NCBI GenBank assembly: GCA_946498375.1
Contig: CAMMOI010000001.1
Location: forward strand, 8,433 to 72,432
Direction of reading: 5' to 3'
Length of the DNA stretch: 64,000 bases
Origin: an uncultured Mycoplasmatota bacterium
GTDB taxonomy: Bacteria > Bacillota_I > Bacilli_A > RF39 > UBA660
How positions within the stretch are numbered: position 1 is the stretch's first letter; each line of letters begins with the position of its first letter. The notes beneath the pieces were generated by a model. The model ran no database searches. It was not told where the DNA came from and saw nothing but the letters and a program-made list of their open reading frames with translations. Made by a program: the position numbers and the translations under genes. Shown in pieces: positions 6,777 through 30,601 of this stretch.

Positions 6777-7553
6777 ATGAAAAAATTTTTTCAAATTATT
6801 GGTTTATGTAGTATTTTAGTTTTTAGTTTTTATTATACAGATAAAATTGCAGTAATTGTTGAGCAAAAAAATCCGGTTTTAAAAGAAATAAAATCCAAAG
6901 AAGACGATCTTTATGTATCGGCAGTAGATGCAACTATAACTGAAGAATACATTATTCCTGGAATTTATGGAAGTAAAGTAAACGTTGAAAAAAGTTTTTA
7001 TAATATGAAAGCTTTAAATACTTTTAATGAGTATTATATTATTTATGATGATGTAAAACCAACTATTTCGATTGAAGATAATAAAGATAAAATTATCATA
7101 GGTGGTAATAACTCTAAAAGACAAGTTTCTATTATTTTAGAATATAATGATGAGTTAATTAATCTTTTTCAGAAATACAACGTAAATTTATTTATAAATA
7201 AAGATAATTATAGTGTATCTAGTGGATTTGAGTTAATTAATAATGAAAGTGAATTGAAATTATTTAATCAAGTTAATACATTATTAAATAATGATAATAT
7301 AAATAAACATCTTTGTATAGTTAATGATAATAATAAAGAAGTTTGTAAAAAGAATAATAATTATTTAGTTCAATCTACACTTAAATTATCAACTAATAAT
7401 TTAAGTGAAATTAAAGGGTTAATTGATAATGGTTCGATTATTACTGTTTCACAAAATGCAAAAATAGAAGATGTAAAACTATTGTTAAATTATATTCGAT
7501 TTAGAGATTTAGAAATTGTTTACTTAAGTGATTTAATTAGTGAAAAAAATTAG
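6777..7553 (+). CDS. secreted/membrane-anchored hypothetical protein (possible degenerate NodB/PdaB-like fold)
   Basis: N-terminal signal/TM (IIGLCSILVFSFYY). Central KRQVSIILEYNDE loosely resembles the NodB deacetylase motif-1 region but lacks the catalytic Asp pair. Assignment is weak. Confidence 0.3.
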   Translation: MKKFFQIIGLCSILVFSFYYTDKIAVIVEQKNPVLKEIKSKEDDLYVSAVDATITEEYIIPGIYGSKVNVEKSFYNMKALNTFNEYYIIYDDVKPTISIEDNKDKIIIGGNNSKRQVSIILEYNDELINLFQKYNVNLFINKDNYSVSSGFELINNESELKLFNQVNTLLNNDNINKHLCIVNDNNKEVCKKNNNYLVQSTLKLSTNNLSEIKGLIDNGSIITVSQNAKIEDVKLLLNYIRFRDLEIVYLSDLISEKN

Positions 7554-7649
7554 AATTTACAATTTTATTTGTGAATTTTGATATTTTATTTTTCCTTGAA
7601 AAGATTTAAGAATATGATAAACTATAATATATAGTAAAGGAAGAATAAA

Positions 7650-8249
7650 ATGAAAAAACTTAAGAAATTATTAGTTGTTGCAATTATAACTTTAACAATG
7701 ATAGGGTGTGAGCAGAAAGAAAATATGAATAATGATGATACAAAATATTTAAGCGGAACAATAAATGCTGAAATTGATGTAAAAGATTATGGAATAATAG
7801 AAGTTCAGTTAGATGCTGATACGGCTCCAATTAGTGTGACAAATTTTGTTAATTTAGCCAAAAGTGGGTTTTATGATGGATTAACTTTTCATCGAATTAT
7901 TGAAGGATTTATGATTCAAGGTGGAGATCCTAACCAAGATGGAACTGGGGGAAGCGAAGAGACTATCAAGGGTGAATTTTCCGCAAATGGAGTAGAAAAT
8001 GATATTTCACATGAAAGAGGCGTAATTTCTATGGCTCGTGCTCAAGATTATGATAGTGCAAGTTCTCAATTTTTTATCGTTCAAGAAGATAGTACATATT
8101 TAGATGGAGAATACGCTGCATTTGGTCATGTTACTAAAGGAATGGACATTGTAGATAAGATAGCTCAAGATGCAGAACCAACAGATAGTAATGGTACTAT
8201 TGAAAAAGAAAATCAGCCGGTGATTAATAGTATTAAAATAATTGATTAA
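7650..8249 (+). CDS. cyclophilin-type peptidyl-prolyl cis-trans isomerase, lipoprotein
   Basis: Lipobox LTMIGC. Cyclophilin signature GFYDGLTFHRIIEGFMIQGGDP and SMARAQDYDSASSQFFI. Confidence 0.85.
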   Translation: MKKLKKLLVVAIITLTMIGCEQKENMNNDDTKYLSGTINAEIDVKDYGIIEVQLDADTAPISVTNFVNLAKSGFYDGLTFHRIIEGFMIQGGDPNQDGTGGSEETIKGEFSANGVENDISHERGVISMARAQDYDSASSQFFIVQEDSTYLDGEYAAFGHVTKGMDIVDKIAQDAEPTDSNGTIEKENQPVINSIKIID

Positions 8250-8276
8250 ATAAAAAAATATTAGCATATGAGTGTG

Positions 8277-9191
8277 CTAATATTTTTTTATGTAAAAAGC
8301 ATAGTATTCATCAAAAGTAATATTGGCATCAAAAATTTCTTGTGCAACTTTTATTCCTACATAACGATAATGCCAAGATTCAAAAGCATAACCAGTTATA
8401 TCTTCTTTATTTTCAGGATATCTTAAAATAAAACCATATTTATAAGAATTGTTTTTTAGCCATTGATAAGCTTTTGTATACTTAAAATTACTCATAGGTT
8501 GATTATAAGTTATTATATCTAAAGCTAAACCAGTCTGGTGTTCTGAAAAACCAGGTTGAGCAGAAATGGTATCAGTATATTCTTGTCCGTAAGTTAGAAC
8601 ATAATTTGTATATAAATTTTTTTGATATTCATATGAACGATATGCTGAGGCAATAAATAAATCAATATTATTTTTCTTGGCATCATTATACATTTTTATA
8701 AAAGCATTTTTAACTTCTTCAATAGTTTGACGTTTTTTATATGCATAGGTTAAATCTAAATCGATAAGATTATCTGGTTCATAATTACTATCTAAATAAT
8801 TATATTTATTTACTAAAATCAGATTTCCTTTACTTAAATCAGCGGATTTTATATTTTTATAAGCTATAGCATCAGCATTTACATTTACTAAAGAAATAAT
8901 TTTACTAATTTCTATTTCGGGATGAGTTGTATAATAAGCTAAATAGCGATCTAAATTTTTATGAAGATAATATTTTTCTTTAATAAAGATATTAAGGTAA
9001 TTTATTTTTTTACGCTCTTTTAAATCAGTTATTTCACTATCTGTTAATTTTTGGTTAATTAATTGAAGTGTTTTTTGATCATAACCTATTTTATCTAATT
9101 TATTTTGACTATTTAAATTTAATCTAATAGTAATTAGACAAATTAAAAAAAATCCTATGACTATTAAAATTATCTTTTTTAAAGTCAACAT
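8277..9191 (-). CDS. VanY-type D-alanyl-D-alanine carboxypeptidase (M15B peptidase)
   Basis: N-terminal TM. Active-site signature SAQPGFSEHQTGLALDI (SxHxxGxAxD) and WHYRYVG typical of the VanY/M15 family. Confidence 0.75.
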   Translation of the reverse strand: MLTLKKIILIVIGFFLICLITIRLNLNSQNKLDKIGYDQKTLQLINQKLTDSEITDLKERKKINYLNIFIKEKYYLHKNLDRYLAYYTTHPEIEISKIISLVNVNADAIAYKNIKSADLSKGNLILVNKYNYLDSNYEPDNLIDLDLTYAYKKRQTIEEVKNAFIKMYNDAKKNNIDLFIASAYRSYEYQKNLYTNYVLTYGQEYTDTISAQPGFSEHQTGLALDIITYNQPMSNFKYTKAYQWLKNNSYKYGFILRYPENKEDITGYAFESWHYRYVGIKVAQEIFDANITFDEYYAFYIKKY

Positions 9192-10999: not shown

Positions 11000-13120
11000 T
11001 TAATCTTTAATTATTAAGTTATTATTTTCTACATCAATTTTAATAGTTGAATTAAATTTTATTTTATCTAAAATAATATTTTTAGCAATTAAGGTTTCTA
11101 GATTACGTGAAACAAATCTTTTAATTGGTCGAGCGCCATATTTTTCATCGTAAGATGAATCAATAATAAAGTCTTTTGCCTTATCAGACAATTGTATTTT
11201 TAAGCGTTTATCTTTTAATCTGTTTTCAATATCACTAATAATTTTATCTAAAATATTATAAACAATATCTTTAGATAAAGAATTAAATATAATTATTTCA
11301 TCAATACGATTAATAAATTCTGGTTTAAAAGTATGTTGTAATTCTTCCATTACAAGTTTATTGGCATTTTCAGTATTTTCTAGAATATATTCGCTTCCTA
11401 AATTAGAAGTCATAATAATTATTGTGTTTTTAAAATCGACGGTGCGACCTTGAGAGTCAGTAATTCTACCATCATCCAATATTTGAAGCAATATATTAAA
11501 AACATCTTTATGAGCTTTTTCAATTTCATCAAAAAGAACTATTGAATAAGGATTTCGACGAATTGCCTCAGTAAGTTGACCTCCTTCATCATATCCTACA
11601 TATCCTGGAGGAGCACCAACTAATCTTGAAACACTGTGAGCTTCCATATATTCAGACATATCTATTCTAACCATATGACGTTCATCATCAAATAGTTCAT
11701 AGGCTAAACTACGGGCAACTTCAGTTTTACCAACTCCAGTAGGTCCTAAGAAAATAAATGAACCAATAGGGCGGTTAGGGTCTTTAATTCCACTACGGGC
11801 TCTAATAATAGCCTCGCTAATTAGTTTTAATGCTTGATCCTGACCCATAACCCTTTTTCTTAGATTATTTTCTAAGTTAATTAATTTTTCTTTTTCACCA
11901 CTAACTAGCTTACTAATTGGAATATTTGTCCATTTAGAAATTATTTTAGCTATGGATTCATCATCAACAACATCACTAAGTAATTTTGATTTAGAGTTAA
12001 ATTTTAAAGTTTCTAGTTCTTCTTGCAATTTAGGAATAATTCCGTGACGTAATTTTGCAGCAGCTTCTAGATCATAATTATTTTCAGCTATTTCTAATTT
12101 ATGCATAGCATTTTCTAATTCTTCTTTTTTGCGATTTATATTGTTACTAACTTCTTTTTCTTGATTCCATTGATCTCTAAGTTCTTTTTCTTTTTCTTGC
12201 AATTGAGAAATTTTAGTATCTAATTCTTTAACTCTTTCCTTAGAAATTTCATCCTTTTCACGTTTTAAAGCTTCACGTTCAATTTGTAGGCGCATAATTT
12301 GTTTGGTTAAGATATCCAAATTAACAGGAACGGATTCCATTTGTACTTTAATAGTAGCACACGCCTCATCAACTAAATCAATAGCCTTATCTGGTAAATA
12401 TCTATTTGTAATATATCTATCAGAAAGAGTAGCAGCAGCAACTAAAGCTTTATCTTTAATAGTTACACCATGATATACCTCAAAACGTGATTTCAAACCA
12501 CGTAAAATGGTAATAGTATCCTCAACATTAGGTTCCTGTACCAAGATTTTTTGAAATCTTCGCTCTAATGCACCGTCTTTTTCTATGTATTTACGATATT
12601 CATTTAAAGTAGTAGCACCTATACAATGAATTTCTCCACGGGCAAGCATAGGCTTTAACATATTTCCAGCATCCATTGCTCCTTCTAAAGCTCCAGCACC
12701 AACTATCATGTGTATTTCATCAATAAACATAATAATTTGGCCATCAGAGTTTTTAACCTCTTTTAATACCGCTTTTAATCTTTCTTCAAATTCGCCTCGA
12801 TATTTTGCACCAGCAATTAATGATCCCATATCTAATTCCCAAATCTTTTTATCTTTTAAACTATTTGGGACATCACCTTTGATAATTCTTTGGGCTAGGC
12901 CTTCAACAATAGCTGTTTTACCAACTCCTGGATCACCAATTAAAACTGGATTATTCTTAGTTTTACGGGATAAAATTCTTGTAATGTTTCTTATTTCTTC
13001 ATCACGACCAATAATTGGATCATTTTTCCCATCTATAACACTTTGAGTAATATCTCTACCATATTTCTCTAAGACATTTTCTAAATTTTCTTGATATTCT
13101 TTTGGGTTATTCATTATCAT
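11000..13120 (-). CDS. clpB: ATP-dependent chaperone ClpB lacking the N-terminal domain
   Basis: Two AAA+ modules ([33 protein letters not shown]), sensor motifs, and a ClpB-length coiled-coil M-domain of about 120 aa between them. The protein begins at the LEKYGRDIT segment that normally follows the about 150 aa N-domain. Confidence 0.85.
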
Positions 13121-13153: not shown

Positions 13154-13180
13154 TTAGCACTTGTCAATATAGAGTGCTAA
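13154..13180. promoter_or_regulatory. CIRCE operator (HrcA binding site)
   Basis: TTAGCACTT-GTCAATATA-GAGTGCTAA matches CIRCE consensus TTAGCACTC-N9-GAGTGCTAA at 17 of 18 positions. On the minus strand it overlaps TTGACA-N16-TATAAT directly upstream of clpB. Confidence 0.75.
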
Positions 13181-13197
13181 TTTTATGGTGTTAATAC

Positions 13198-13226
13198 TTG
13201 CGTATATTGCTAAAATATGCTATAAT
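13198..13226 (+). promoter_or_regulatory. sigma-A-type promoter TTGCGT-N17-TGcTATAAT (copy 1)
   Basis: -35 TTGCGT 13198-13203 and extended -10 at 13218-13226. Leader GGCTAGAAAAGAGGGATTAATATG is identical to the copy at 15297-15319. Confidence 0.5.
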
Positions 13227-13249
13227 CTGGCTAGAAAAGAGGGATTAAT

Positions 13250-14926
13250 ATGTTTGATGAGCTTTTTTACAAAAATCAAGACTTACTAAATAAGTTAAAT
13301 TGTAGTAACGAGCAAATTGAAGAGTGGAAATCATATTTAATACAGATGGCTGGTCTTTTAAAAACAGAGGCACAAACACCACCAATTTTAGTAGAGTATA
13401 CTGAACACATGTTTTTAAATTTTAAAAATATTCTAGAAAGAAAAGAATTAAAAGAAAAAATCAGTGATCTAATTTATGAACGAATGAACTGTAAAGATGA
13501 ACAAAAAAAGGCTGAAATAGAACAGCAGTTAAGTGATTTAGATCAAAAATCTAAAGTTGCTGAGCAACAAAAGATAGATATAAGACAGAAAAATACTTTA
13601 ATACTTAATAAATTTAATCAAGAAATAGCTACTTTGCCTAAAGAAAATCAAGTATCTTTTGAGCAAATAAATCAACAACTAGGTGCTCTTATTTCTAATA
13701 TTAATAATGGTATTAATAAAACTAAAGCACCCCAACCTGAGCCAAAAACAGAATTTAGTGCTGAGGAGTTACAAAAACTCTTAGAAGAGCAAAGAAAAGA
13801 AAACGAACGTTTAAAAAAAGAAAATAAAGATTTAAATGATCAGTTAAATGTAATGCAACAAAGTATGGAAGAATTAAAAAACCAATTAGAAGAACAAAGA
13901 AAATTACTTGAAGATATGAAAAATAATACTTTAGGAACTAAAGTAAAAAATGTTGGTAAAAAAGCTAAAAGAAAAGTAGTTCAAGTAAAAAAATGGGCTA
14001 AAGCAAATCCTAAAAAAACAGCAGCTATTATTGGAACAGTAGCCTTAGCTGGTTTAGTTGGATCTGCCGTTGCTTATGGGCATCCTCTAGCTTTTGCTGG
14101 AAGAGTAGTATCTGCAATGTGGAAACCACTTCATAATGTTGGCCTAGGCGAACCACTTCATAATATTAACCGATTCTTGTTTGGTAAAATTCGAGGAGCA
14201 ACCTTTGATAGTGGAAGAGGACTATGGTTATTAAATGGAACACCATTAAATGATTTAGGAGCATTTGAAACCATTCTTAATAATGTAGTAGGAATGGGTG
14301 CTGGATTAGCAGGCGGAGCAGCAATTGGTTATGGAGCATATAAAGTAGCAAAAAAGGCCAAAAATGCCTGGTTAAATAGAGCCGAAGATGGCTTTATTAA
14401 TAAAATGACTAATAAAATTAAATCATTAGGTGGCAATGTAAAAGCATTTGGGGGAAAAATTAAAAGTAAATTAACTAATATTTTTAAGAAAAAGAAAAAA
14501 ACAAAAGATGATTTTGATGTTATGTCTATGGAAGTAGATCAAGAATTAATTGAAGATTGCTTAGGAGATATTAAAGATGCTACTGTTGATGATTTAATTT
14601 ATTTTCAAAATGATATGATATCTATTGGTAGTTATGTTCAAGAAAATCATGCTTTACCTGATGATATAGAGTATCCATTAACTTTAGGAACTATTGTTGA
14701 AATATGTTCATTATTAGATGATGCATTACAGAAAAAATTTGATGAACATATAGAAAATATGTCTAAAGAAGAATTAGAAAATTTAGCACAAGAATTAGAA
14801 GAAAAATTTCAAAACGAAGCAAATAACAATATAAATTACTTTGATTCTAAATATGGTATCAAATTAAGTGCTGCAATCAATAAGGTAAGCGCTAAAATGC
14901 AAGAACAAACAATGGGAGGAAGATAA
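13250..14926 (+). CDS. paralog 1 of duplicated coiled-coil / glycine-zipper protein, unknown function
   Basis: 558 aa. N-terminal about 230 aa heptad-rich coiled coil with a PQPEPK linker. Lys-rich segment (KNVGKKAKRKVVQVKKWAKANPKK), then about 110 aa Gly/Ala-rich hydrophobic core (AIIGTVALAGLVGSAV...VVGMGAGLAGGAAIGYGAY), a second Lys-rich segment, and a conserved C-terminal ENMSKEELENLAQELEEKFQNEANNNI region. Confidence 0.5.
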   Translation: MFDELFYKNQDLLNKLNCSNEQIEEWKSYLIQMAGLLKTEAQTPPILVEYTEHMFLNFKNILERKELKEKISDLIYERMNCKDEQKKAEIEQQLSDLDQKSKVAEQQKIDIRQKNTLILNKFNQEIATLPKENQVSFEQINQQLGALISNINNGINKTKAPQPEPKTEFSAEELQKLLEEQRKENERLKKENKDLNDQLNVMQQSMEELKNQLEEQRKLLEDMKNNTLGTKVKNVGKKAKRKVVQVKKWAKANPKKTAAIIGTVALAGLVGSAVAYGHPLAFAGRVVSAMWKPLHNVGLGEPLHNINRFLFGKIRGATFDSGRGLWLLNGTPLNDLGAFETILNNVVGMGAGLAGGAAIGYGAYKVAKKAKNAWLNRAEDGFINKMTNKIKSLGGNVKAFGGKIKSKLTNIFKKKKKTKDDFDVMSMEVDQELIEDCLGDIKDATVDDLIYFQNDMISIGSYVQENHALPDDIEYPLTLGTIVEICSLLDDALQKKFDEHIENMSKEELENLAQELEEKFQNEANNNINYFDSKYGIKLSAAINKVSAKMQEQTMGGR

Positions 14927-15207
14927 TGACTAAAGGTGATATAATAACTTTAGAAGATAATGAACAATTTCTTTTATTAATGGAAAATGAAATAGAGGGC
15001 AGAAAATTCTTTTATGCAAACAAAGTAGACAATGAGGAAAATACAACTAGCGAATATGAAATTTTTGAACAATTAACTGAAGATGGCGATAATTATTTAG
15101 AAATTGTTGAGGATGAAGATGAAAGAGAATTTTTAACAAATGTATTTAGTGCTGATTTAGTTGAGTTTGCCTCTGATGTGGAAAGTGGAAAGATTACATT
15201 CGAATAA
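14926..15207 (+). CDS. DUF1292-family small acidic protein
   Basis: 93 aa. ITLEDNEQFLLLMENEIEGRKFFYANKV...YLEIVEDEDEREFLTNVF fits the DUF1292/YrzB pattern. ATG overlaps the upstream stop (TAATG), suggesting translational coupling. Confidence 0.6.
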   Translation: MTKGDIITLEDNEQFLLLMENEIEGRKFFYANKVDNEENTTSEYEIFEQLTEDGDNYLEIVEDEDEREFLTNVFSADLVEFASDVESGKITFE

Positions 15208-15217
15208 TGAAAATAAG

Positions 15218-15243
15218 CTAATACTCTTAAGTATTAGTTTTTT
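15218..15243 (+). terminator. intrinsic terminator after operon copy 1
   Basis: CTAATACT-CTTAA-GTATTAG hairpin followed by T6. Confidence 0.6.
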
Positions 15244-15267
15244 AGTATAATAGTTTTAGGCTTATAT

Positions 15268-15296
15268 TTGCTAATATATAGGATTAATGCTATAAT
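15268..15296 (+). promoter_or_regulatory. sigma-A-type promoter TTGCTA-N17-TGcTATAAT (copy 2)
   Basis: Duplicate of the 13198-13226 promoter with an identical downstream leader and SD. Confidence 0.5.
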
Positions 15297-15319
15297 TTGG
15301 CTAGAAAAGAGGGATTAAT

Positions 15320-16984
15320 GTGATTGATGAGCTTTTTGACAAATATCAAGATTTGCTAAACAGATTAAATTGTAGTAACGAGCAAATTAAAGACTGGAAA
15401 CAAATTTTAACAAAAATGTCTGACTTTTTAAAATCTGAATCAGAAAAAGTAAGTGCTGTTGTAATAGAATATGCTGAGCAAATTTTTTTGAGTTTTGAAA
15501 ATATTTTAGAAAAAGAAAAGTTAAAAGAAAAAAAGAATATTTTAATTAATGAACGCGATAATTGTAAAGATGAAGAAAAAAAGTCTGAAATAGAAAAGCA
15601 ATTAAGTGATTTGGAACAAAAATTTAAAATCATTGAGCAACAAAGAGTAGAACTACGTCAAAAAAATAATATAGTATTTAATAAATTTAATCAACAAATT
15701 AATACTTTATCTGAAAAAGATCAAAATGCTTTTGATAAAGTAAACCAACAGTTAGGTAAATTAATTACTAATGTTAATGCTGGTATTGATAAGCCAAAAA
15801 CACCACAGCCTGAGCCCAAAGTAGAGCTTAGTGCTGAGGAGTTACAAAAACTCTTAGAACAGCAAAGACAAGAAAATGAACGTTTGAAAAAGGAAAATCA
15901 AAATTTAAAAAATCAGTTAAATATAATGCAACAAAGTATAGAAGAATTAAAAAAGCAATTAGAAGATCAGAAAAAATTTCTTGAAGAAATGAAAAATAAT
16001 ACTTTAGGAACTAAAGTAAAAAATGTTGGTAAAAAAGCGAAAAGAAAAGTAGTTCAAGTAAAAAAATGGGCCAAAGCAAATCCTAAAAAAACAGTAGCTA
16101 TTATTGGAACAGTAGCCTTAGCTGGTTTAGTTGGATCTGCCGTTATTTACGGACATCCTCTATCTTTTGCTGGAAGAGTAGTTTCGGCTTTGTGGAAACC
16201 ACTTCATAATGTAGGCCTAGGAAAACCACTTCATAATATTAACCGATTCTTATTTGGTAAAATTAGAGGAGCAACCTTTGATAGTGGAAGAGGACTATGG
16301 TTATTAAATGGAACACCATTAAATGATTTAGGAGCATTTGAAACCATTCTTAATAATGTAGTAGGAATGGGTGCTGGATTAGCAGGTCTTTCTGCGGTTG
16401 GTTATGGAGCATATAAAGTAGCAAAAAAGGCTAAAAATGCTTGGTTAAATAGAGCTGAAGATGGCTTTATTAATAAAATGACTAATAAAATCAAATCATT
16501 AAGGGGAACTTTAAAAAATAAGCTTACAAATAGATTTAAAAGAAAAAAAGATTTAATTGAAGATTATGATATTATGAGTCCGGTTGTAGATGCAACTTTA
16601 ATTGATGAAATTTTGCCCGATTTAGAAACTATAAGTATAGAAGAATTGATATATTTACAAAAATATATAAGTGAAGTTAATATATATATTTATAATAATC
16701 ACAAATTACCTGAGGATATTAATGTTCCATTAAATTTAGGGACTATAGAAGAAATTTTAAAAATAATAGACAAGGAGTTACAAATTAGATTTGATGAGTA
16801 TATAGAAAATATGTCTAAAGAAGAATTAGAAAATTTAGCAAAAGAATTAGAAGAAAAATTCCAAAATGAAGCAAATAATAATATTGATTATTTTGATCCT
16901 AAATATGGTATAAAATTAAGTGTAGCAATTAACAAAGTTAGTGCTAAGATTCAAGAGCATATAATTGTGACAAAAAAGATTTAA
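15320..16984 (+). CDS. paralog 2 of duplicated coiled-coil / glycine-zipper protein (GTG start)
   Basis: 554 aa, collinear with 13250..14926. The Gly-zipper core and C-terminal 60 aa are near-identical even at nucleotide level; the coiled-coil and the region before the C-terminus are diverged. Starts at GTG in the position of the copy-1 ATG. Confidence 0.5.
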   Translation: MIDELFDKYQDLLNRLNCSNEQIKDWKQILTKMSDFLKSESEKVSAVVIEYAEQIFLSFENILEKEKLKEKKNILINERDNCKDEEKKSEIEKQLSDLEQKFKIIEQQRVELRQKNNIVFNKFNQQINTLSEKDQNAFDKVNQQLGKLITNVNAGIDKPKTPQPEPKVELSAEELQKLLEQQRQENERLKKENQNLKNQLNIMQQSIEELKKQLEDQKKFLEEMKNNTLGTKVKNVGKKAKRKVVQVKKWAKANPKKTVAIIGTVALAGLVGSAVIYGHPLSFAGRVVSALWKPLHNVGLGKPLHNINRFLFGKIRGATFDSGRGLWLLNGTPLNDLGAFETILNNVVGMGAGLAGLSAVGYGAYKVAKKAKNAWLNRAEDGFINKMTNKIKSLRGTLKNKLTNRFKRKKDLIEDYDIMSPVVDATLIDEILPDLETISIEELIYLQKYISEVNIYIYNNHKLPEDINVPLNLGTIEEILKIIDKELQIRFDEYIENMSKEELENLAKELEEKFQNEANNNIDYFDPKYGIKLSVAINKVSAKIQEHIIVTKKI

Positions 16985-16995
16985 TATTTTTATAA

Positions 16996-17022
16996 GATAA
17001 CGATAAAATCGTTATTTTTTTT
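16996..17022 (+). terminator. intrinsic terminator after paralog 2
   Basis: GATAACGAT-AAAA-TCGTTAT hairpin followed by T8. Confidence 0.6.
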
Positions 17023-17152
17023 AATAATTTTTATAGAATTAAAACTTATAAAATATATTATTTACAGCTAGAAATTATTTCAAAATTAAATTTTATTAAT
17101 TGTACAAATTAAATTATATTTTGATATATATAGTTAGGGTGTTAAAGTAAAA

Positions 17153-18661
17153 ATGAAAGAACCAATAGTTATTAATAAACACAAACTAGATCATGATCAA
17201 ATGGCTATAGTTACTTCAACTTCGAAAAAAATATTAGTCATTGCTGGAGCCGGAAGTGGTAAAAGTTTAACTATGATTGGTAAAATCCACTATTTAATAA
17301 AAGAGTTAAATGTTTCTTCAAATGATATTTTAGCTATTTCTTTTACTAATGAAGCCACTAAAAGTTTAAAAACTAAGCTTCAAAAATATTTTAATTATAA
17401 TATTGATGTTTTAACTTTTCATAAACTAGCTTTAAGAATAATTCATAAACAATACCATAAAATAGTAGATGATAAATTTTTAGATGAAGTTATAGATATT
17501 TTTTTTGAAGGGCTAATTTTTAGTAATCCATATTTATTAAAACAAGTATTAAAATACTTTAGAATTATTTATATGCCATGGAATTATGAAATTAAATATA
17601 AACAATTACTTTTAACTAAAAAAATAACAGTAATGAAAAAAACTATTAGTGTCTTTTTAAAATTATTCAAAACTAATAATTATTCTAATGATGAATTTAT
17701 CCATTTTTTAAAAGCTGGTAAATATTATTCTTTTTTAATTATTGCATATAGTATATATACCTTTTATAAAGCTGAATTAAAAGCTACTAATAGTTTGGAT
17801 TTTGATGAAATAATAAAAAAAGCAATTGGTAATGTAAAAAGATCAAATATTAGTTATAAATATATTATAATTGATGAATATCAAGATACTTCTTTATTAA
17901 GATATGAACTTATAAAAAAAATATTAGATAAGACTAATGCTAATTTAATATGTGTAGGAGATGATTTTCAATCAATCTATAATTTTAGTGGGTGTACTTT
18001 AGATTTATTTTTAAATTTTAAAACTTATTTTCCTAATGCTTCTATAAAATATATTAACTTTACATATCGAAATGCACAGCAATTAATTGATGTTGCTGGA
18101 AGTTTTATTATGAAAAACAAATATCAGATAAGAAAAAATTTAGTTTCAACTAAAAATATTAATAAACCATTTATATTATTTTATTATAAAAATAAAAAAA
18201 GAGATTTTACTACTTTATTATTGAATTTAGGAAAAAAAGATAAATTATTTGTATTAGGAAGAAATAACTTTGATATAAAGAAATATTTAGATTTAAACAT
18301 CTTTAAATTAGAAAAAGATGGGTATATATATTTACTAAAGAATAACTATTGTTATGCTAGATATTTAACAATTCATAAAGCCAAGGGCTTGGAAAGTGAT
18401 AATGTTATAATTATTAATTTAGAAAACGATTTTTATGGATTTCCTAGTAAGCAAATTGATGAAAAAGTACTATCGCTAGTAAAAAAGCCAACTGATGCTT
18501 CAATTAAATATGCTGAGGAGCGTCGCTTATTTTATGTTGCAATTACAAGAAGTAAAAATAAGGTTTATTTATATCTTAGTTCTAATGAATCAATATTTAT
18601 AAAAGAATTAAAAAAAGATTATAAAAAATATTTAGTAATATATAAAAAGAAAACTTATTAG
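17153..18661 (+). CDS. compact UvrD/PcrA-like superfamily-1 DNA helicase
   Basis: Walker A AGAGSGKS, motif II IIIDEYQDTS, motif III GDDFQSIY, motif V TIHKAKGLE and motif VI FYVAITRSK all present in only 502 aa. Confidence 0.65.
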   Translation: MKEPIVINKHKLDHDQMAIVTSTSKKILVIAGAGSGKSLTMIGKIHYLIKELNVSSNDILAISFTNEATKSLKTKLQKYFNYNIDVLTFHKLALRIIHKQYHKIVDDKFLDEVIDIFFEGLIFSNPYLLKQVLKYFRIIYMPWNYEIKYKQLLLTKKITVMKKTISVFLKLFKTNNYSNDEFIHFLKAGKYYSFLIIAYSIYTFYKAELKATNSLDFDEIIKKAIGNVKRSNISYKYIIIDEYQDTSLLRYELIKKILDKTNANLICVGDDFQSIYNFSGCTLDLFLNFKTYFPNASIKYINFTYRNAQQLIDVAGSFIMKNKYQIRKNLVSTKNINKPFILFYYKNKKRDFTTLLLNLGKKDKLFVLGRNNFDIKKYLDLNIFKLEKDGYIYLLKNNYCYARYLTIHKAKGLESDNVIIINLENDFYGFPSKQIDEKVLSLVKKPTDASIKYAEERRLFYVAITRSKNKVYLYLSSNESIFIKELKKDYKKYLVIYKKKTY

Positions 18662-19524
18662 TTTTCTTTAGAATACATGCGATATAAATTTATTGATGGT
18701 TTATTAAAAAAGCGAAAGCTGTAGTCAGTAGTTCCTATTCCACCAGAAATAAAAAATTTAGTTAAATCTATATTATAATATTCATCATAATATGTTTTGC
18801 TACCATTTTTAGCAATAATTTGACCTACAAAAGGTATTCTAACTTGCCCATTTAAAGAATGACCGCTTAATACTAAATCAGGATTATAATCTTTAAATTG
18901 TAAGTAACTATCCGGCTCATTTACTAAAACAATTTTATATACTGGCGTGTTACTAAAATTTTGTAAACCACTAAAAGCTGTTTCATAGTCTTGAGTCCCT
19001 TTTAATAACGAAGGAAGTCCAATAATAATAATAGGAATATTATCTTTATAGTATAAAACATCATAAGTATTATTTAAATAATTAAATCCAGCATTTTTCA
19101 TTAATATTTCATAGTTATCTAATTTATAGTCTTGATCTCCGCTAACTGCATATTTACCTAATGTAGCATCAATTTGACTTAAACTTTCAGTCAAAAACTC
19201 AATTAAAGAATCACTTATAATTGTATCTTTATCGATAATATTACCACTAAAAACTACTAGATCAGGTTTTAAGTCATTTATTTGTTTTACTAAATTTTGA
19301 ACATCTTTTTTATTTACTGTTCTTCCATATAATAAATCAGAAAAATGAATTATTTTAAGCCCATCTATATTACTAGTGAATATTGAACTATTAATAGCAT
19401 ATTCTCTTACAGTTAATCCCTTTGTACTAATAAATCTAGCCCATAAAATGATAAAAACAATAAATAGTATCAAAATAATAAAAATTAATTTTCCATTGCT
19501 TAAATTTTTTCTTTCTTCATTCAT
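18658..19524 (-). CDS. membrane-anchored metallophosphoesterase (YkuE-like)
   Basis: N-terminal TM. Calcineurin-like motifs IIHFSDLLYG, GHSLNGQVRIPFVG (GHxHxGQ). Convergent with the helicase stop; overlaps it by 4 nt. Confidence 0.65.
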   Translation of the reverse strand: MNEERKNLSNGKLIFIILILFIVFIILWARFISTKGLTVREYAINSSIFTSNIDGLKIIHFSDLLYGRTVNKKDVQNLVKQINDLKPDLVVFSGNIIDKDTIISDSLIEFLTESLSQIDATLGKYAVSGDQDYKLDNYEILMKNAGFNYLNNTYDVLYYKDNIPIIIIGLPSLLKGTQDYETAFSGLQNFSNTPVYKIVLVNEPDSYLQFKDYNPDLVLSGHSLNGQVRIPFVGQIIAKNGSKTYYDEYYNIDLTKFFISGGIGTTDYSFRFFNKPSINLYRMYSKEN

Positions 19525-19528
19525 ATTT

Positions 19529-20293
19529 TTATACTCCAGCAGATAGCATAGAAAAAATAATTAATAATACAGATAATGAATTGTGAAATATATGCATAAA
19601 TATAGAGGTGAAAATATTATCAGTTTTATAATATGCATAACCAAAAGCAATCCCTAAGCTACCGTATGGTAAGAAGTAAAGTAATTCTTGCCAATTTTTT
19701 ATTATTCCTGCAATAGTAAAAGATTCAATTCCAGTGGCAACATGCATTCCAGCAAATAAAAGACCAGTAAAAAGAGAATATTTAATTATACTTTTGAAAG
19801 CATTTTTAAATGATGCTCGAAATAATAATTCTTCACATATTGGACCAATAATACACATTGAAACAATCGAAAATAAGGGGAATTGAGCTAATATAGCTCT
19901 ATTGGAACTTTCATTAGCTGCCATTCCATTTTCAATAATAAAAAGATTAATTATTAGATTACTAACTATCATTAGGCCAAAACCAATTAGCCAAAATTTA
20001 AAAGCAGTTTTAATATATTTTTTATAGTTTTTTTTAAAGTCTTTAAAATCTCGAAAAAATCTTTTATGAAAAATAAAAATCAAAATTAATAATGTACATA
20101 ATTCAGCCATTATATAACATATATTAGCTCCCCAATTAGTAGAACTAAAAGGAAATACTAAAAATATTTGTAAAAACAAGGATGGAACAATCATATATAA
20201 AATAATAATTCCAATACTCATTAAAATTGATATAAAAGAATCTTTATAATTTTTACATTCAAAATCCATAAATCTATTCACCTTTTTATTCAA
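19529..20293 (-). CDS. CPBP-family intramembrane metalloprotease (CAAX protease / Abi-like)
   Basis: Multi-TM protein with EELLFRASF (motif 1), FAGMHV and HIFHNSLSV motifs of the CPBP/Abi family. Confidence 0.65.
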   Translation of the reverse strand: MNKKVNRFMDFECKNYKDSFISILMSIGIIILYMIVPSLFLQIFLVFPFSSTNWGANICYIMAELCTLLILIFIFHKRFFRDFKDFKKNYKKYIKTAFKFWLIGFGLMIVSNLIINLFIIENGMAANESSNRAILAQFPLFSIVSMCIIGPICEELLFRASFKNAFKSIIKYSLFTGLLFAGMHVATGIESFTIAGIIKNWQELLYFLPYGSLGIAFGYAYYKTDNIFTSIFMHIFHNSLSVLLIIFSMLSAGV

Positions 20294-20726
20294 TATAATC
20301 TAATGATTTTAGCTTTTCTTCTATTGTTGAACGCGTAGCAGTACCAACAATTCTATTAACAACAGTTTTTTCTTCACCATCTTCTATAAAAATTGTTGTT
20401 GGTGTTCCGCTTACATTAGCAATACTATTCAAATACTTTTTGTCATCATCTGATAATGTTGCTAAATCAACATAATAACCAGTAACTTGATTATCTCTTA
20501 ATACATTAGTTAACACTGGCATGTATTCTGCACAATGAGAACAGCCTTCACGAGTAATTACTAAAATAAAACTATCTTTGTTATTAATTTTCTCTTCAAG
20601 TTTATCTTTTGTTAATTCTACTAAGTAGCTTTGAGCATTACTTTTTTCTTTTTTTGCTAAAAATAAAATTCCAATAACTAATGCAATAATTACAATGATA
20701 CCTATAATTATAAATTTCTTTTTCAT
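20286..20726 (-). CDS. membrane-anchored thioredoxin-like protein with CSHC active site (bacteriocin-transport-accessory-like)
   Basis: N-terminal TM, then ILVITREGCSHCAEYMPVL (CxxC). Overlaps the CPBP gene start by 8 nt (operon). Confidence 0.6.
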   Translation of the reverse strand: MKKKFIIIGIIVIIALVIGILFLAKKEKSNAQSYLVELTKDKLEEKINNKDSFILVITREGCSHCAEYMPVLTNVLRDNQVTGYYVDLATLSDDDKKYLNSIANVSGTPTTIFIEDGEEKTVVNRIVGTATRSTIEEKLKSLDYIE

Positions 20727-20864
20727 TAACTCTCACCGTTTATAAATATATCATAATTTATAGTGCTATTCAAATTTCTTTATACTTTATTAGACAATTT
20801 TTACAATTTTATTAATACTAAATTTTTTAAAATTTAATATATTTTATTAGAATAGGAGATAAAA

Positions 20865-21806
20865 ATGAAAAAGGTAATTGTTGGTATTCCGAAGGCATTG
20901 TTATTTTATCATTATAAAAGTTTATGGTTAGAATTTTTTAATAACTTACAAATTGAAGTGTTAATAAGTCCTGACACTAATAAGCAAATATTAGAAAATG
21001 GTAGTAAACATGTAGTAGATGAAGCATGTCTTTCTTTAAAAATATTTATGGGCCATATTGATTATTTAAAAGATAAAGTTGATTACATATTAATTCCTCG
21101 AATAGAGTGTGTCAAATTAAATGAAAAAGTATGTACTAATTTTTTAGCTCTTTATGATTTAGTAAATAACGTATTTAATGACATTAAAATTTTAAATTAT
21201 AATGTTGATTTAGAAAAAGGTGAAAGTCAAGTTGATGGCTTTATAAAAATTGGTAAAGAACTTGGTTTTTCATATATTCAAACCTTAAGTGCTTATAATG
21301 AAGCATTAGTTAAATTTAAAAAAGAAAATCAAAAAAAGATAAGCATAAATGATAAAAAATTAGAGTCTGATAAGTTAAAAATATTAGTAGCTGCTCATCC
21401 GTATAATTTGCATGATGCTTTAATAGGACAGCCCATTATTGATTATTTAAAACAAGAGAATATAAGCGTTTTAACATCCGATATATATGATGATTATTCT
21501 AAATTTGACTGTAAAGAAATTTCTAAAACTATCTATTGGACTTATAACAAGCGAATAAATGCTGCAATTTTGAAATATAAGGATTTTATTGATGGTATCA
21601 TATTACTTTCTACTTTCCCATGTGGACCGGATTCTTTATGTAATGAGCTTATAATTAGGAAGATAAAAAGTGTACCAATTTTATATATAACTAAAGATGA
21701 TTCATCTAGTGATGCCGGATTAATTACAAGATTGGAAAGTTTTATAGATATTATAAAATTAAAAAAACAAAGAGAGCAGGTTATAAATGAAAACAATAAT
21801 AATTAG
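20865..21806 (+). CDS. acyl-CoA dehydratase activase-related protein (DUF2229-like, N-terminal half)
   Basis: VGIPKALLFYHYKSLWLEFFNNLQIEVLISPDTNKQI...VDEACLSLKIFMGH...VDYILIPR pattern is typical of the uncharacterised domain found in CoA-substrate-specific enzyme activase proteins. Confidence 0.5.
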   Translation: MKKVIVGIPKALLFYHYKSLWLEFFNNLQIEVLISPDTNKQILENGSKHVVDEACLSLKIFMGHIDYLKDKVDYILIPRIECVKLNEKVCTNFLALYDLVNNVFNDIKILNYNVDLEKGESQVDGFIKIGKELGFSYIQTLSAYNEALVKFKKENQKKISINDKKLESDKLKILVAAHPYNLHDALIGQPIIDYLKQENISVLTSDIYDDYSKFDCKEISKTIYWTYNKRINAAILKYKDFIDGIILLSTFPCGPDSLCNELIIRKIKSVPILYITKDDSSSDAGLITRLESFIDIIKLKKQREQVINENNNN

Positions 21807-22857
21807 TTTTCCTCATTTAGGAAATTATCATGTTCCAATTAAATTTTTTTTGTCACACTTAACTGATGCCCAAATTTTAATTCCCCCTAAAATAACTAAA
21901 AAAACTATTGATTTGGGAAGCAAATACAGTCCTGATTTTGTCTGTTTGCCTTTTAAATATAATTTAGGTAATTATATTGAAGCCTTAGAACAAGGAGCCA
22001 ATGTATTAGTTCAAGCTGGTGGCGGGTGTAGATATGGTTGTTATGGAGAAGTACAAGAACAAATTTTAAGAGATTTAGGATATGATTTTAAGCTTGTATC
22101 TTTAGTTGAAAATGGCAAAATTAATATACTAAGTATTTATAAATCATTAAAAAATATCAATCCTAAAGTTAACTTTTTTAAATATGTTTATTATCTAATT
22201 TTTACAATGTTAATGATAATGTGCATGGATAAAATCGAAATTTATATTCGTAAAAATATTGGATTTGAAAAAGTAAAAAATAGTTTTAAAACTTTAGAGA
22301 CAAAAATGTTAGAAGATTTTGCTAAGACTAAATGTATATCATCTTTAATATTTAAATATTGGAAATATAAACATAAATTTAAGCAAATAAAAGTAAAAAA
22401 AGTCAGTAATCCCATTAAAGTTGGAATTATAGGAGAATTATATACTTCTATGGAGCCTTTTTCTTCGTATTTTGTTGAAGAATCACTAGCTAAATATAAT
22501 ATTGAAATAAAACGCTTTACTAATTTAACGTATTTACTTGTTAAAAAAAGTAAGCTAATTAAAAAAATGCTTAAAAGAAGTAAAAACTATGTTAGTTATG
22601 AACTAGGAGCAGATGGAATGGATAATGTAGCTAGGGCTTTGTATTTAAAACAAAAAGGGTATGATGGAATAATTCATATTAAACCATTTGGATGTACCCC
22701 GGAAATTGGAGCTATGCCCATTATTGATAAAGTATGCAAAGACAATAAAATGCCTGTAATTTATTTTTCATTTGATTCTCAAACATCAAATGAAGGTATT
22801 AAAACTAGATTAGAAGCTTTAGTAGATATGTTAGTAGAAAGGAAGAAAAAAGGATAA
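21787..22857 (+). CDS. acyl-CoA dehydratase activase-related protein (DUF2229-like, second half)
   Basis: ISFPHLGNYHVPIKFF...DFVCLPFKYNLGNY...AGGGCRYGCYGE pattern. Overlaps the upstream ORF by 20 nt and the downstream ATPase by 1 nt. Confidence 0.5.
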   Translation: MKTIIISFPHLGNYHVPIKFFLSHLTDAQILIPPKITKKTIDLGSKYSPDFVCLPFKYNLGNYIEALEQGANVLVQAGGGCRYGCYGEVQEQILRDLGYDFKLVSLVENGKINILSIYKSLKNINPKVNFFKYVYYLIFTMLMIMCMDKIEIYIRKNIGFEKVKNSFKTLETKMLEDFAKTKCISSLIFKYWKYKHKFKQIKVKKVSNPIKVGIIGELYTSMEPFSSYFVEESLAKYNIEIKRFTNLTYLLVKKSKLIKKMLKRSKNYVSYELGADGMDNVARALYLKQKGYDGIIHIKPFGCTPEIGAMPIIDKVCKDNKMPVIYFSFDSQTSNEGIKTRLEALVDMLVERKKKG

Positions 22858-23810
22858 TGGAAAAGTGCTATTTAGGAATTGATATCGGGTCAATTTCAAC
22901 AAAAGGTGTAATTATAGATAAAGATAATAATATTTTATATAGTGAATATTTATGGACTGAGGGAAATCCTATAGAAGCTGTAAAGCGAGTGATTAAATCT
23001 TTAGAAAAACAATTTGACAAAGAAAAATATCAAATTGTTCAAATTGGAACTACAGGTAGTGCCCGAAAATTAATAGGAACTATTTTAAATGCTAGTGTTA
23101 TAAAAAATGAAATTACTGCTCATGCAATAGGCACCACATCTTTATATCCTCAAATAAAAACTATTTTAGAAATAGGTGGTCAAGATTCAAAAATTATTTT
23201 AATTGAAGATGGAATTGCCGTTGATTATGCCATGAATACTTTATGTGCAGCAGGTACAGGGGCATTTTTATCAAGTCAAGCAAAAAGATTAAATGTTGCA
23301 GTTGAAGATTTTGGCTCAATAGCATTAACTAGCAAAAATCCTACTAAAATAGCTGCAAGATGTACTGTGTTTGCTGAATCAGATTTAGTTCATAAAGCTC
23401 AAATGGGGTATAAAAAAGAAGATATTATAGCAGGTCTTTGTAAAAGTGTTGCCGTAAATTATTTAAATAATGTTGGAAAAGGAAAAAAAATAAACTCTCC
23501 TATAATTTTTCAAGGAGGAGTAAGTAAAAATATTGGTGTAAAAAAGGCTTTTGAAGATTTATTAGGCCAAGAAGTAATTGTAGATAAAAATGGCCATTTA
23601 ATGGGAGCTTTGGGTGCTGCAATATTAGCTAGTCGAAGTGAAGAAAAAGAAATAAATTTTGATTTTAATATCTCCAATATTAAATTTGAAACCAAAGCTA
23701 TTGAGTGCAAAGGATGTCCAAATAATTGTGAAATTATTTGCGTGTATAAAAATGATGAGTTGATTGATTCATGGGGCAATCGATGCGAAAAAGGTATATT
23801 AAAACATTAA
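22857..23810 (+). CDS. BadF/BadG/BcrA/BcrD-type ATPase (CoA-substrate-specific enzyme activase, HgdC-like)
   Basis: ASKHA-fold motifs LGIDIGSISTKGVII, GTTGSARKL and LCAAGTGAFL. C-terminal Cys cluster CKGCPNNC for an Fe-S centre. Confidence 0.65.
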   Translation: MEKCYLGIDIGSISTKGVIIDKDNNILYSEYLWTEGNPIEAVKRVIKSLEKQFDKEKYQIVQIGTTGSARKLIGTILNASVIKNEITAHAIGTTSLYPQIKTILEIGGQDSKIILIEDGIAVDYAMNTLCAAGTGAFLSSQAKRLNVAVEDFGSIALTSKNPTKIAARCTVFAESDLVHKAQMGYKKEDIIAGLCKSVAVNYLNNVGKGKKINSPIIFQGGVSKNIGVKKAFEDLLGQEVIVDKNGHLMGALGAAILASRSEEKEINFDFNISNIKFETKAIECKGCPNNCEIICVYKNDELIDSWGNRCEKGILKH

Positions 23811-29314: not shown

Positions 29315-29391
29315 GGGCGATTAGCTCAGTTGGTTAGAGCACCTGCCTTACAAGCAGGGGGTCGTAGGTTCGAGTCCTACATCGCCCACCA
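29315..29391 (+). tRNA. tRNA-Val (anticodon TAC)
   Basis: Cloverleaf with acceptor GGGCGAT/ATCGCCC, anticodon loop CTTACAA, T-loop GGTTCGAGTCC, encoded CCA. Confidence 0.9.
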
Positions 29392-29399
29392 TTTTTTTT

Positions 29400-29475
29400 G
29401 CCGACATAGCGTAACTGGCAGCGCAACTGACTTGTAATCAGTAGGTTGGGGGTTCGACTCCCTCTGTCGGCACCA
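29400..29475 (+). tRNA. tRNA-Thr (anticodon TGT)
   Basis: Acceptor GCCGACA/TGTCGGC, anticodon stem ACTGA/TCAGT with loop CTTGTAA, GGTTCGACTCC T-arm, encoded CCA. Confidence 0.85.
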
Positions 29476-29482
29476 TTCTTAT

Positions 29483-29566
29483 GGAGGGATAGCGAAGTGG
29501 TCAAACGCGGCAGACTGTAAATCTGTTCCTTCGGGTTCCATGGTTCAAATCCATGTCCCTCCACCA
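29483..29566 (+). tRNA. tRNA-Tyr (anticodon GTA)
   Basis: Acceptor GGAGGGA/TCCCTCC, anticodon loop CTGTAAA, long variable arm, GGTTCAAATCC T-arm, encoded CCA. Confidence 0.85.
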
Positions 29567-29573
29567 CTTAAAT

Positions 29574-29649
29574 TGCCTCGTAGCCAAGTGGTAAGGCATC
29601 AGACTTTGACTCTGACATTCCGATGGTTCGAATCCATCCGAGGCAGCCA
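29574..29649 (+). tRNA. tRNA-Gln (anticodon TTG)
   Basis: Acceptor TGCCTCG/CGAGGCA, anticodon loop CTTTGAC, GGTTCGAATCC T-arm, encoded CCA. Confidence 0.85.
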
Positions 29650-29657
29650 TATATTAT

Positions 29658-29733
29658 GTCCTGTTAGCTCAGTAGGTAGAGCATCTGACTTTTAATCAGA
29701 GGGTCTGGGATTCGAGTTCCCAACAGGACACCA
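29658..29733 (+). tRNA. tRNA-Lys (anticodon TTT)
   Basis: Acceptor GTCCTGT/ACAGGAC, anticodon loop CTTTTAA, GATTCGAGTTC T-arm, encoded CCA. Confidence 0.85.
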
Positions 29734-29748
29734 TTTTATTTTGAAAGT

Positions 29749-29777
29749 AAAAGTTCTTGTAGGAACTTTTTTATTTT
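29749..29777 (+). terminator. intrinsic terminator after tRNA cluster
   Basis: AAAAGTTC-TTGTAG-GAACTTTT hairpin followed by TTATTTT. Confidence 0.65.
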
Positions 29778-29856
29778 AAAATTTAAAGTTATGTTTTGTA
29801 TTTACTTGTTTTTTTGAAAAAGATTGCTTATAATGGACAAGAAGGGAGATAATACA

Positions 29857-30414: not shown

Positions 30415-30524
30415 TTAATTATTTTCATTCACGTTATAGTCCTTTTTCCATAAAATAGAATATAAAAGGTTGATTTTTATAAAAAATGAATATATAATAA
30501 TATTGCATCAGAAATGATGCAATT

Positions 30525-30601
30525 GCGCCCATAGCTCAATTGGATAGAGCGTTTGACTACGGATCAAAAGGTTAGGGGTTCGACTCCCTTTGGGCGCACC
30601 A
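30525..30601 (+). tRNA. tRNA-Arg (anticodon ACG)
   Basis: Acceptor GCGCCCA/TGGGCGC, anticodon stem TTTGA/TCAAA with loop CTACGGA, GGTTCGACTCC T-arm, encoded CCA. Confidence 0.85.

Follow-up and report, generated by a model that had tools for sequence, protein, structure and literature searches.

A tandemly duplicated gene for a putative membrane protein, and its small acidic partner gene, next to clpB in an uncultured Mycoplasmatota bacterium

Between a minus-strand clpB gene and a gene for a UvrD-like helicase, the genome of an uncultured Mycoplasmatota bacterium (RF39; UBA660) carries two long and similar genes, A and B, placed head to tail, and the question raised by this locus is what kind of protein they encode. 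The locus lies in a stretch of 64,000 nucleotides (assembly GCA_946498375.1, contig CAMMOI010000001.1, positions 8,433 to 72,432), here called the window, which has a G+C content of 25.6% and whose own numbering is used below. The two open reading frames (ORFs), A (13250-14926, plus strand, ATG start, 558 amino acids, aa) and B (15320-16984, plus strand, 554 aa, with a GTG start at the site homologous to the ATG of A), code for proteins that share 71% identity and 85% similarity from end to end (BLASTP 790 bits, E = 0), in agreement with a preliminary description of this DNA, made from its letters alone, that had reported two tandem units encoding large paralogs. In the reading that we favour, with a probability of about 0.4, the large protein would most likely be an oligomeric scaffold or adaptor that is anchored in the membrane and serves to organize the envelope or the membrane, acting together with a small acidic cytoplasmic partner, the product of the gene that follows A.

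The two-gene unit, its tandem duplication and gene conversion

The small partner gene (14926-15207, plus strand, 93 aa) overlaps the stop codon of A with its ATG (TAATG), and codes for a protein with an isoelectric point (pI) of 4.05, 28 Asp/Glu residues and no signal peptide found by sequence analysis. Its Shine-Dalgarno sequence, GGAGG (14915-14919, plus strand), is located 6 nt before the ATG, within the last codons of A (Gly-Gly-Arg). In each of the nine loci examined, which represent several genomic contexts, the large gene is overlapped or directly followed by one of 89-98 aa, and in all nine a purine-rich, Shine-Dalgarno-like motif precedes the small-gene ATG by 6-11 nt, this motif being GGAGG in eight of them and GGAAAGGA in locus L010. 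Large proteins throughout the family end in '...FGG[R/I/M]xR'; since the motif is contained in the last codons of the large gene, the conserved GG tail is best explained as the footprint of a ribosome-binding site (RBS). Both the GGAGG motif and the GG tail are missing at the end of B, and no small gene is found downstream of it; there is, instead, what looks like the decayed remnant of a second small-gene start (16968-17005, plus strand), which spans the last codons and the stop of B and extends downstream, and which local alignment to the sequence from 14926 onward matches to the first 35-50 nt or so of the small gene (score 19, against 10.3 ± 1.8 for shuffled sequences, 1 of 2000 of which reached 19).

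At the level of sequence, these features establish that A is translationally coupled to the small gene, that large and small gene form a conserved ancestral unit, and that B lost its partner gene. The pair is the only association that is invariant across the loci of the family, and the small gene is the most informative feature of the locus, being the only invariant companion of the large one and explaining the C-terminal tail of A. It had been missed in the preliminary description, as had its loss after B and the gene conversion discussed below; thus, the duplicated operon proposed there holds for the two large genes, but not for the unit in full, because only the first copy has the 93-aa ORF.

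The small protein is well conserved across relatives and its family comprises 35 clusters, all of 88-100 aa and all unnamed. It resembles, for its length of about 90 aa and its marked acidity, the DUF1292 proteins, small acidic proteins of Firmicutes, and this likeness concerns the partner only. The window protein matches the DUF1292 model (PF06949) over positions 6-71 of 75 with 18.5 bits (E = 0.0039), below the gathering threshold of 24 bits, and such a match was found in only 3 of 32 members of the small-protein family (E ≤ 0.004, best E = 0.0023); a remote relationship is possible. A literature search on the function of DUF1292 returned incidental mentions only and no functional information.

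The A/small operon is preceded by a putative promoter (13198-13226, plus strand), read from the sequence, with a -35 element TTGCGT, a 17-nt spacer and the extended -10 element TGcTATAAT (regular-expression match at 13218); its -35 element agrees with the consensus at only 3 of 6 positions. The leader GGCTAGAAAAGAGGGATTAAT (13227-13249, plus strand), with the RBS GAGGG at 13239-13243, is identical to the leader of B (15297-15319). The B promoter, TTGCTA-17-TATAAT with TG upstream (15268-15296, plus strand), matched 10 of 12 positions in a promoter scan. Both promoters, as consensus matches only, belong to the sigma-A type and possess an extended -10. The shared promoter of the preliminary description is therefore partly confirmed: TGcTATAAT, leader and RBS are common to A and B, but detectable homology begins at the -10 element and the -35 regions do not align. 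An AT-rich hairpin with a U-run after the small gene (15215-15246, plus strand; -9.7 kcal/mol, z = -2.2) is the likely terminator of the A/small operon, and was missed by a consensus terminator scan because the latter demands three G-C pairs; a second hairpin with a U-run (16994-17026, plus strand; -8.7 kcal/mol, z = -3.1) is the likely terminator of B. Given these two hairpins, the locus comprises two separate transcription units, one with the promoter, A, the small gene and a terminator, and one with the promoter, B and a terminator.

The two copies are similar at the DNA level between about 13217/15287 and about 14960/17000 (offset 2070-2073 nt), with a nucleotide difference of 22-29%. An independent metagenome contig (L005; ENA ERZ24911165), 98.5% identical to the window over 3.2 kb, reaches from the end of A across the small gene and B into the beginning of the helicase gene, with junctions as in the window. 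The same arrangement in an independent assembly, together with the divergence of the copies, rules out a collapsed or duplicated assembly artefact, a concern that the preliminary description had raised about the second copy. The tandem duplication is real and ancient, and both copies are under purifying selection. Indeed, dN/dS (the ratio of nonsynonymous to synonymous substitution rates) between A and B is lowest in the last module (0.05), followed by the core (0.16), the N-terminal parts (0.43) and the variable C-terminal part (0.57); being below 1 in every segment, it indicates that both copies are maintained by selection.

The synonymous distance (dS) between A and B is a mosaic, with 0.19 in the core (aa 225-395) versus 0.58-0.90 in the flanks. 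A three-way comparison of A, B and the closest relative, L001, revealed incongruent distances: in the C-terminal third, A differs from L001 at 5-11% of nucleotides and from B at 19-38%, whereas at third positions of the core A differs from B by 0.075-0.16 and from L001 by 0.20-0.30. The low dS of the core and this incongruence show, as far as sequence comparison goes, that gene conversion homogenized the central 170 codons or so of A and B after the duplication. A database protein from a 2.1-kb contig (P0002, ENA) has the N-terminal half of B and the C-terminal half of A, with the crossover inside the near-identical core; it arose either as a chimera of metagenome assembly or by genuine unequal crossover. 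In the B copy of L005 (P0006, L005 1061-2689), 12 aa (INVPLNLGTIEE) are deleted in frame from the variable part of the C-domain, the region of highest dN/dS. In this genome, an ancestral operon of two genes, coding for the large protein and for an acidic protein of about 90 aa, and found in most relatives between a clpB gene controlled by CIRCE (controlling inverted repeat of chaperone expression) and the UvrD-like helicase gene, was duplicated in tandem; B kept its own promoter, RBS and terminator but lost the partner, and gene conversion then homogenized the core.

Architecture of the large protein

The N-terminal part of A (aa 1-155) is a predicted helical bundle, modelled with a pLDDT (predicted local distance difference test) of about 88 by AlphaFold2 (AF2), which was run on an alignment of 15 sequences. 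The hinge PQPEPK (aa 161-166) does not end a coiled coil of about 230 aa, as the preliminary description had it, but lies between this bundle and a heptad coiled coil of 56 aa (aa 171-226), in which 75% of the a/d positions are hydrophobic, versus 0-6% in registers that sample the surface, and which AF2 models as a long single helix (aa 171-224). A cationic amphipathic helix follows (aa 226-257); its residues 226-251 display the peak hydrophobic moment of the protein, 0.58 (mean 0.27, sd 0.11), and carry 12 Lys/Arg and no acidic residue directly before the first transmembrane segment (TM1), so that it qualifies by sequence as a helix of the membrane-surface type.

The Gly/Ala-rich hydrophobic core reported earlier is resolved into two hydrophobic segments placed around a conserved loop, and insertion into the membrane, also suggested there, is supported by their predicted hydropathy. 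TM1 (aa 258-277; 14021-14080) is clearly hydrophobic, with a Kyte-Doolittle hydropathy averaged over 19 residues (KD19) of 1.9-2.2; TM2 (aa 345-364; 14282-14341) is rich in Gly and Ala and marginal (KD19 1.3), and is followed by a polybasic segment (aa 365-420) with 18 Lys/Arg in 56 residues. The loop between them (67 aa; aa 278-344; 14081-14281) emerged from the family alignment as the best-conserved part of the family, with the consensus PLA..AR.VSALW.PLH.IGLG..LH.IN.FL.GK...G.F....G.W; in the alignment of 15 sequences, L303 never varies and R285, H304, G324 and W326 hardly do. The net charge of the loop is +2, and the outer flanks contain 12 (before TM1) and 18 (after TM2) Lys/Arg. Since sequence analysis found no signal peptide in the large protein and positive charge is located on both outer flanks, a hairpin topology is predicted, with both termini inside and the loop outside or partly re-entrant.

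A glycine zipper, to which the preliminary description had likened the core, is present in A, where a strict GxxxGxxxGxxxG motif lies inside the hydrophobic stretch of TM2, but not in B nor in most relatives: strict matches in four relatives span the end of TM2 into the polybasic segment, and the remaining members have none. A looser pattern (small-xxx-G-xxx-small) is present in 13 of 14 members. The acidic C-domain (aa 421-558; pI 4.1-4.5) is made of two modules of about 60 aa which are related to each other (hhalign probability 78%, E = 1.8e-5), and is modelled by AF2 with a pLDDT of about 83 (aa 421-555). In a 798-aa relative (P0017, L008 4080-6476) there are extra, near-identical C-terminal modules, 'LS.EQLQELE.WL...GAY.AIK.IGG.EIK.SNREECEKLL', which identifies the module as a repeat unit able to expand. 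B shares the whole architecture of A, but without the GGR tail, the strict glycine zipper and the partner gene.

Family, genomic context and regulation

A word-indexed homology search retrieved six close proteins only, and an exhaustive HMMER search, using a profile from aa 225 to the end against 1.84 billion cluster representatives, gave 14 matches at E ≤ 0.001. Twelve of these are real distant relatives, about 20-32% identical, which share the same layout, with a helical N-terminal part, coiled coil, Lys-rich segment, TM1, conserved loop, TM2, second Lys-rich segment and acidic C-domain. Scans of contigs gave one metagenome-assembled genome among genome contigs and four loci among metagenome contigs; the large-protein family was absent from the phage genomes, plasmids and viral contigs searched, and an origin as plasmid or prophage cargo is accordingly rejected. 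The sequence searches thus show a tiny family without known relatives, restricted to one clade of uncultured, gut-type, low-GC Bacilli and inherited chromosomally.

Scans of A, B, the small protein and the distant relatives against Pfam, NCBIfam, PHROGs and PADLOC gave sub-threshold compositional matches only, a PDB sequence search with family alignment profiles yielded nothing specific (the best hit being a coiled coil, E = 5e-4), and Foldseek found no match to the models at E ≤ 0.001 in PDB and BFVD. The earlier statement that the proteins match no known family, therefore, stands for both sequence and fold. Among the sub-threshold hits, the crescentin rod (16 bits versus a cut-off of 100) is a compositional coiled-coil match. 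Phage tape-measure proteins are similar in having long helices with hydrophobic Gly-rich segments, and were the best viral structure matches (Foldseek, BFVD; E of at least 0.026, TM-score no higher than 0.16); this candidate is rejected on the grounds that no PHROG tape-measure match was found (unknown-function PHROGs only, E of at least 0.002), that the context is one of clpB and helicase, and that phage and viral contigs contain no member.

The order clpB (minus strand), CIRCE, large gene, small gene and UvrD-like helicase gene is found in nine loci (the window, L004, L006, L007, L008, L011, L012, L013 and L015/16), with 129-166 nt between clpB and the pair. In the window, clpB (11000-13120, minus strand, 706 aa) is divergent from A and lies outside the operon, as conserved context; an ORF with ClpB domains occupies the equivalent position in L008, L011, L012 and L013. 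The gene for the UvrD/helicase IV-like protein (17153-18661, plus strand, 502 aa), likewise context only, has the same place in L004, L008, L011 and L015. ClpB is short, with 706 aa in the window and 700-702 aa in relatives; as canonical ClpB has about 860 aa, the window protein looks like a form devoid of the N-domain, as in Mollicutes. The gene order further downstream (17153-23810), which comprises the helicase gene, genes for a metallophosphoesterase, an Rce1-like protease and a thioredoxin-like protein, all three on the minus strand, and DUF2229/HGD-D/BcrAD activase genes, is the same in L004 and L015, which indicates that the locus belongs to the ordinary chromosomal backbone. Between the compared clpB loci, identity is 83-86% for ClpB, 49-61% for the helicase, 51-61% for the small protein and 28-36% for the large protein; by these sequence comparisons the hosts are closely related, and evolution of the large protein is fast except in its core.

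Two other contexts were identified. L001 and L003 share with the window only the 2-kb module made of promoter, A, small gene and terminator (window 13189-15244; 87-88% nucleotide identity), located after suf-serS (L001 9940-11959; L003 7407-9475) and, in L001, before a gene for a 1098-aa Flg_new/N-methyl protein; because the module alone is shared and the flanks are different, it was relocated or transferred. A DDE transposase gene is present about 8 kb upstream of the module in L001. In the most divergent subfamily (L010 745-3089; L014 237-506; L017 526-795) the pair precedes a gene for a glycosyltransferase family 4 (GT4; MraY/TagO-like) enzyme and, in L010, follows a PP-loop ATPase gene; this neighbourhood provides a faint association with envelope biogenesis. 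As to further contents of these regions, L008 has an insertion of an AbiEi-like gene and of two AbiEii fragments (6864-8301) that separates the small gene from the helicase gene, and genes for SpoIIP and for the germination protease GPR lie a few kb away from the locus on one related contig. In the window, the antisense ORFs at 12708-13046 (plus strand, 112 aa, inside clpB) and 15346-15633 (minus strand, 95 aa, inside B) look like shadow ORFs of AT-rich coding DNA rather than genes; seven tRNA genes (Val, Thr, Tyr, Gln and Lys, followed by Arg and Pro) are clustered at 29315-30685, and three more tRNA genes are found at 9289, 40408 and 61442.

The ClpB/CIRCE neighbourhood emphasized in the preliminary description is thus real and conserved in nine loci, but the CIRCE overlaps the promoter of clpB and not that of A. 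The clpB promoter (13167-13140, minus strand), TTGACA-16-TATAAT with TG, is a perfect 12/12 match in the promoter scan, and its -35 element is overlapped by the inverted repeat TTAGCACTT-N9-GAGTGCTAA (13154-13180), found by regular expression and kept at this position in all nine clpB-linked loci. Control of clpB by HrcA and CIRCE is documented in Mollicutes (PMC5138195). The repeat ends 18 nt upstream of the -35 element of A, and a regular-expression search of the window found no CIRCE over or downstream of the A promoter and none before B. Control of A or B by CIRCE is rejected on these grounds, and there is no direct evidence in the sequence that either gene belongs to the heat-shock regulon.

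Candidate functions of the pair

As its anatomy suggests, the large protein would be a helical-hairpin protein of the inner membrane, with both termini in the cytoplasm. The N-terminal helical bundle would sit on the 56-residue coiled-coil stalk, which implies at least a dimer, and the strongly cationic amphipathic helix would lie on the inner leaflet; the two transmembrane helices, rich in small residues, would pack together and against those of neighbouring subunits, while the conserved 67-residue loop would face outward or be partly re-entrant and the repeat-built acidic C-terminal domain would extend into the cytoplasm. The small acidic protein may bind the polybasic segments next to the membrane or the last C-terminal module, which is conserved; A and B being almost identical in either region, a single partner could serve the two proteins, which probably co-assemble via the homogenized core, their differences lying in the variable N- and C-domains. 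A parallel is offered by membrane-anchored coiled-coil scaffolds known from Firmicutes, such as EzrA, MapZ and the DivIVA/GpsB-type proteins: these, too, combine a membrane anchor with long oligomerizing helical or coiled-coil parts in the cytoplasm, they are chromosomal with housekeeping-type promoters, and their coiled coil is little constrained. They are not homologs by profile, since no Pfam or NCBIfam match to division and envelope scaffolds (EzrA, DivIVA, GpsB, MreC) was obtained, MreC being sub-threshold (E = 0.17-0.3). The protein described here differs from them in its central hairpin anchor with a conserved 67-aa loop, in the predicted cytoplasmic location of both termini, in its polybasic amphipathic helix and in the constant coupling to a small acidic partner.

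Several observations weigh against a scaffold. The function is deduced from the architecture; TM2 is only marginally hydrophobic, the AF2 confidence of the core is low (pLDDT 30-64), and a single-pass protein with its C-terminus outside, or a monotopic or re-entrant one, would also be compatible with the sequence. Moreover, it is the loop and not the cytoplasmic domains that is best conserved, which could point to an extracellular, catalytic or channel function, and the N- and C-domains diverge quickly, as would be expected equally of a scaffold under low constraint and of a conflict gene.

The conservation of the loop and transmembrane region also speaks for a channel, a pore or a membrane-permeabilizing protein (holin-like, alpha-pore-former-like or translocator-like), in which a ring of Gly/Ala-rich hairpins would form and the small protein would be a chaperone, gatekeeper or antidote. 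This possibility, which we consider unlikely, draws on the strict zipper in TM2 of A, absent from B and most relatives, and on a weak NCBIfam match of B (aa 96-291) to MakE (NF049873; E = 0.002), with 17.2 bits against a cut-off of 360 and no counterpart in A. ClyA and MakE, the alpha-pore-forming toxins, are indeed similar in having a helical bundle and a hydrophobic hairpin, but the fold search found no ClyA-like tail/head bundle, and the large proteins have no export signal and are encoded by a chromosomal, syntenic and vertically inherited gene with a housekeeping-type promoter. For the type III secretion system (T3SS) translocators IpaB and SipB, the structural match (Foldseek E = 7.9) is not separable from those to hundreds of helical hairpins; no T3SS genes were found in the gene lists of 15 related loci (L001, L003-L008, L010-L017) or in the neighbourhood in the window. 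The chaperone of IpaB is a tetratricopeptide repeat protein, unlike the 93-aa DUF1292-like partner found here. The polybasic flanks argue for a resident membrane protein rather than a translocator of this type and predict a stable hairpin with both termini inside, and B persists under purifying selection without its own partner gene. The secreted toxin or pore-former considered in the preliminary description finds no positive support here: the protein lacks a signal peptide, the loci examined displayed no secretion genes, the flanks are polybasic, inheritance is vertical and syntenic, and no phage, plasmid or viral match was found.

Somewhat more speculative, and rather unlikely in our judgement, is that the pair represents an undescribed membrane machine restricted to this clade: a ring or lattice of Gly-rich hairpins whose outward loop (R285, L303, H304, G324, W326) would conduct, sense or bind an envelope component, under cytoplasmic control by the coiled-coil stalk and the DUF1292-like regulator. 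The c-ring of ATP synthase and Mic10, whose Gly-rich transmembrane hairpins oligomerize, may provide an analogy, in that they also have two Gly/Ala-rich transmembrane helices with GxxxG-type packing motifs and positive flanks; there is, however, no homology, and here the loop is long and conserved, the cytoplasmic domains are large and family members do not retain the strict zipper in common.

The constant vicinity of clpB might instead indicate a stress or proteostasis module linked to ClpB, with the large protein as a membrane anchor or adaptor for disaggregation, or as an envelope protector co-regulated by heat shock. The divergent arrangement over 129-166 nt in nine loci, maintained despite a large-protein identity of about 28-36%, and the short distance between CIRCE and the -35 element of A are in its favour. 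This explanation appears improbable, as the CIRCE overlaps the -35 of clpB and not the A promoter, the pair is found away from clpB in L001 and L003 (after suf-serS) and in L010, L014 and L017 (between the PP-loop ATPase and GT4 genes), and the 83-86% identity of ClpB among these genomes means that shared gene order may just reflect close kinship.

Diversifying pressure on a conflict, defence or surface-interaction pair, active for instance in phage exclusion at the membrane, would account for the much higher rate at which the large protein evolves compared with its neighbours (28-36% identity, versus 83-86% for ClpB) and would suit the duplication and gene conversion at the locus, the AbiEi/AbiEii genes inserted adjacent to the pair in L008 and the relocated module of L001 and L003, of which only 2 kb with 88% nucleotide identity is shared. 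Against it, PADLOC gave no significant match, dN/dS is below 1 throughout, synteny is stable in nine loci rather than patchy, and the small partner is well conserved, so that we hold such a role to be very improbable. A Zorya-like defence system in particular is rejected, ZorA and JetC matching only in coiled-coil regions (PADLOC; E of at least 0.011) and no MotA/ExbB match being found in Pfam.

A sporulation- or germination-specific structural or membrane protein, suggested by SpoIIP and GPR a few kb from the locus in related genomes, has very little to recommend it, given the sigma-A-type promoters with extended -10, the lack of any sporulation-family match in Pfam and NCBIfam, and an adjacency to spore genes that is not conserved in the window. 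That B is an assembly artefact or a decaying pseudogene is scarcely credible: the P0002 chimera shows that assemblers can confuse the near-identical core and the L005 copy has its 12-aa in-frame deletion, but the junctions are identical in an independent assembly, the copies differ at 22-29% of nucleotides, and B has an intact ORF, promoter, RBS and terminator with dN/dS below 1. The probability left by the scaffold reading and by the pore, ClpB-linked, conflict, sporulation and artefact explanations belongs to something else.

No new mechanism is indicated by the locus, nor does it touch on an old unsolved problem, tandem duplication, gene conversion and partner loss being ordinary evolutionary features. 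Two lessons may nevertheless be of wider use: a conserved C-terminal GG motif can be the mere footprint of the ribosome-binding site of the next gene, and gene conversion can keep the membrane core of tandem paralogs identical while their cytoplasmic domains diverge. Interest in the pair is moderate until a function is found, and would rise if the loop or the DUF1292-like partner had a defined activity. What is new lies at the family level, as neither protein matches a curated family or a solved structure and about a dozen clusters at 50% identity were found in 1.84 billion representatives. A constant partner, a conserved neighbourhood and a clear plan of domains make this well-delimited two-gene module amenable to experiments through heterologous expression, although its hosts are uncultured; and, if the pair does form an undescribed membrane machine, it would give the widespread DUF1292 fold its first functional context.

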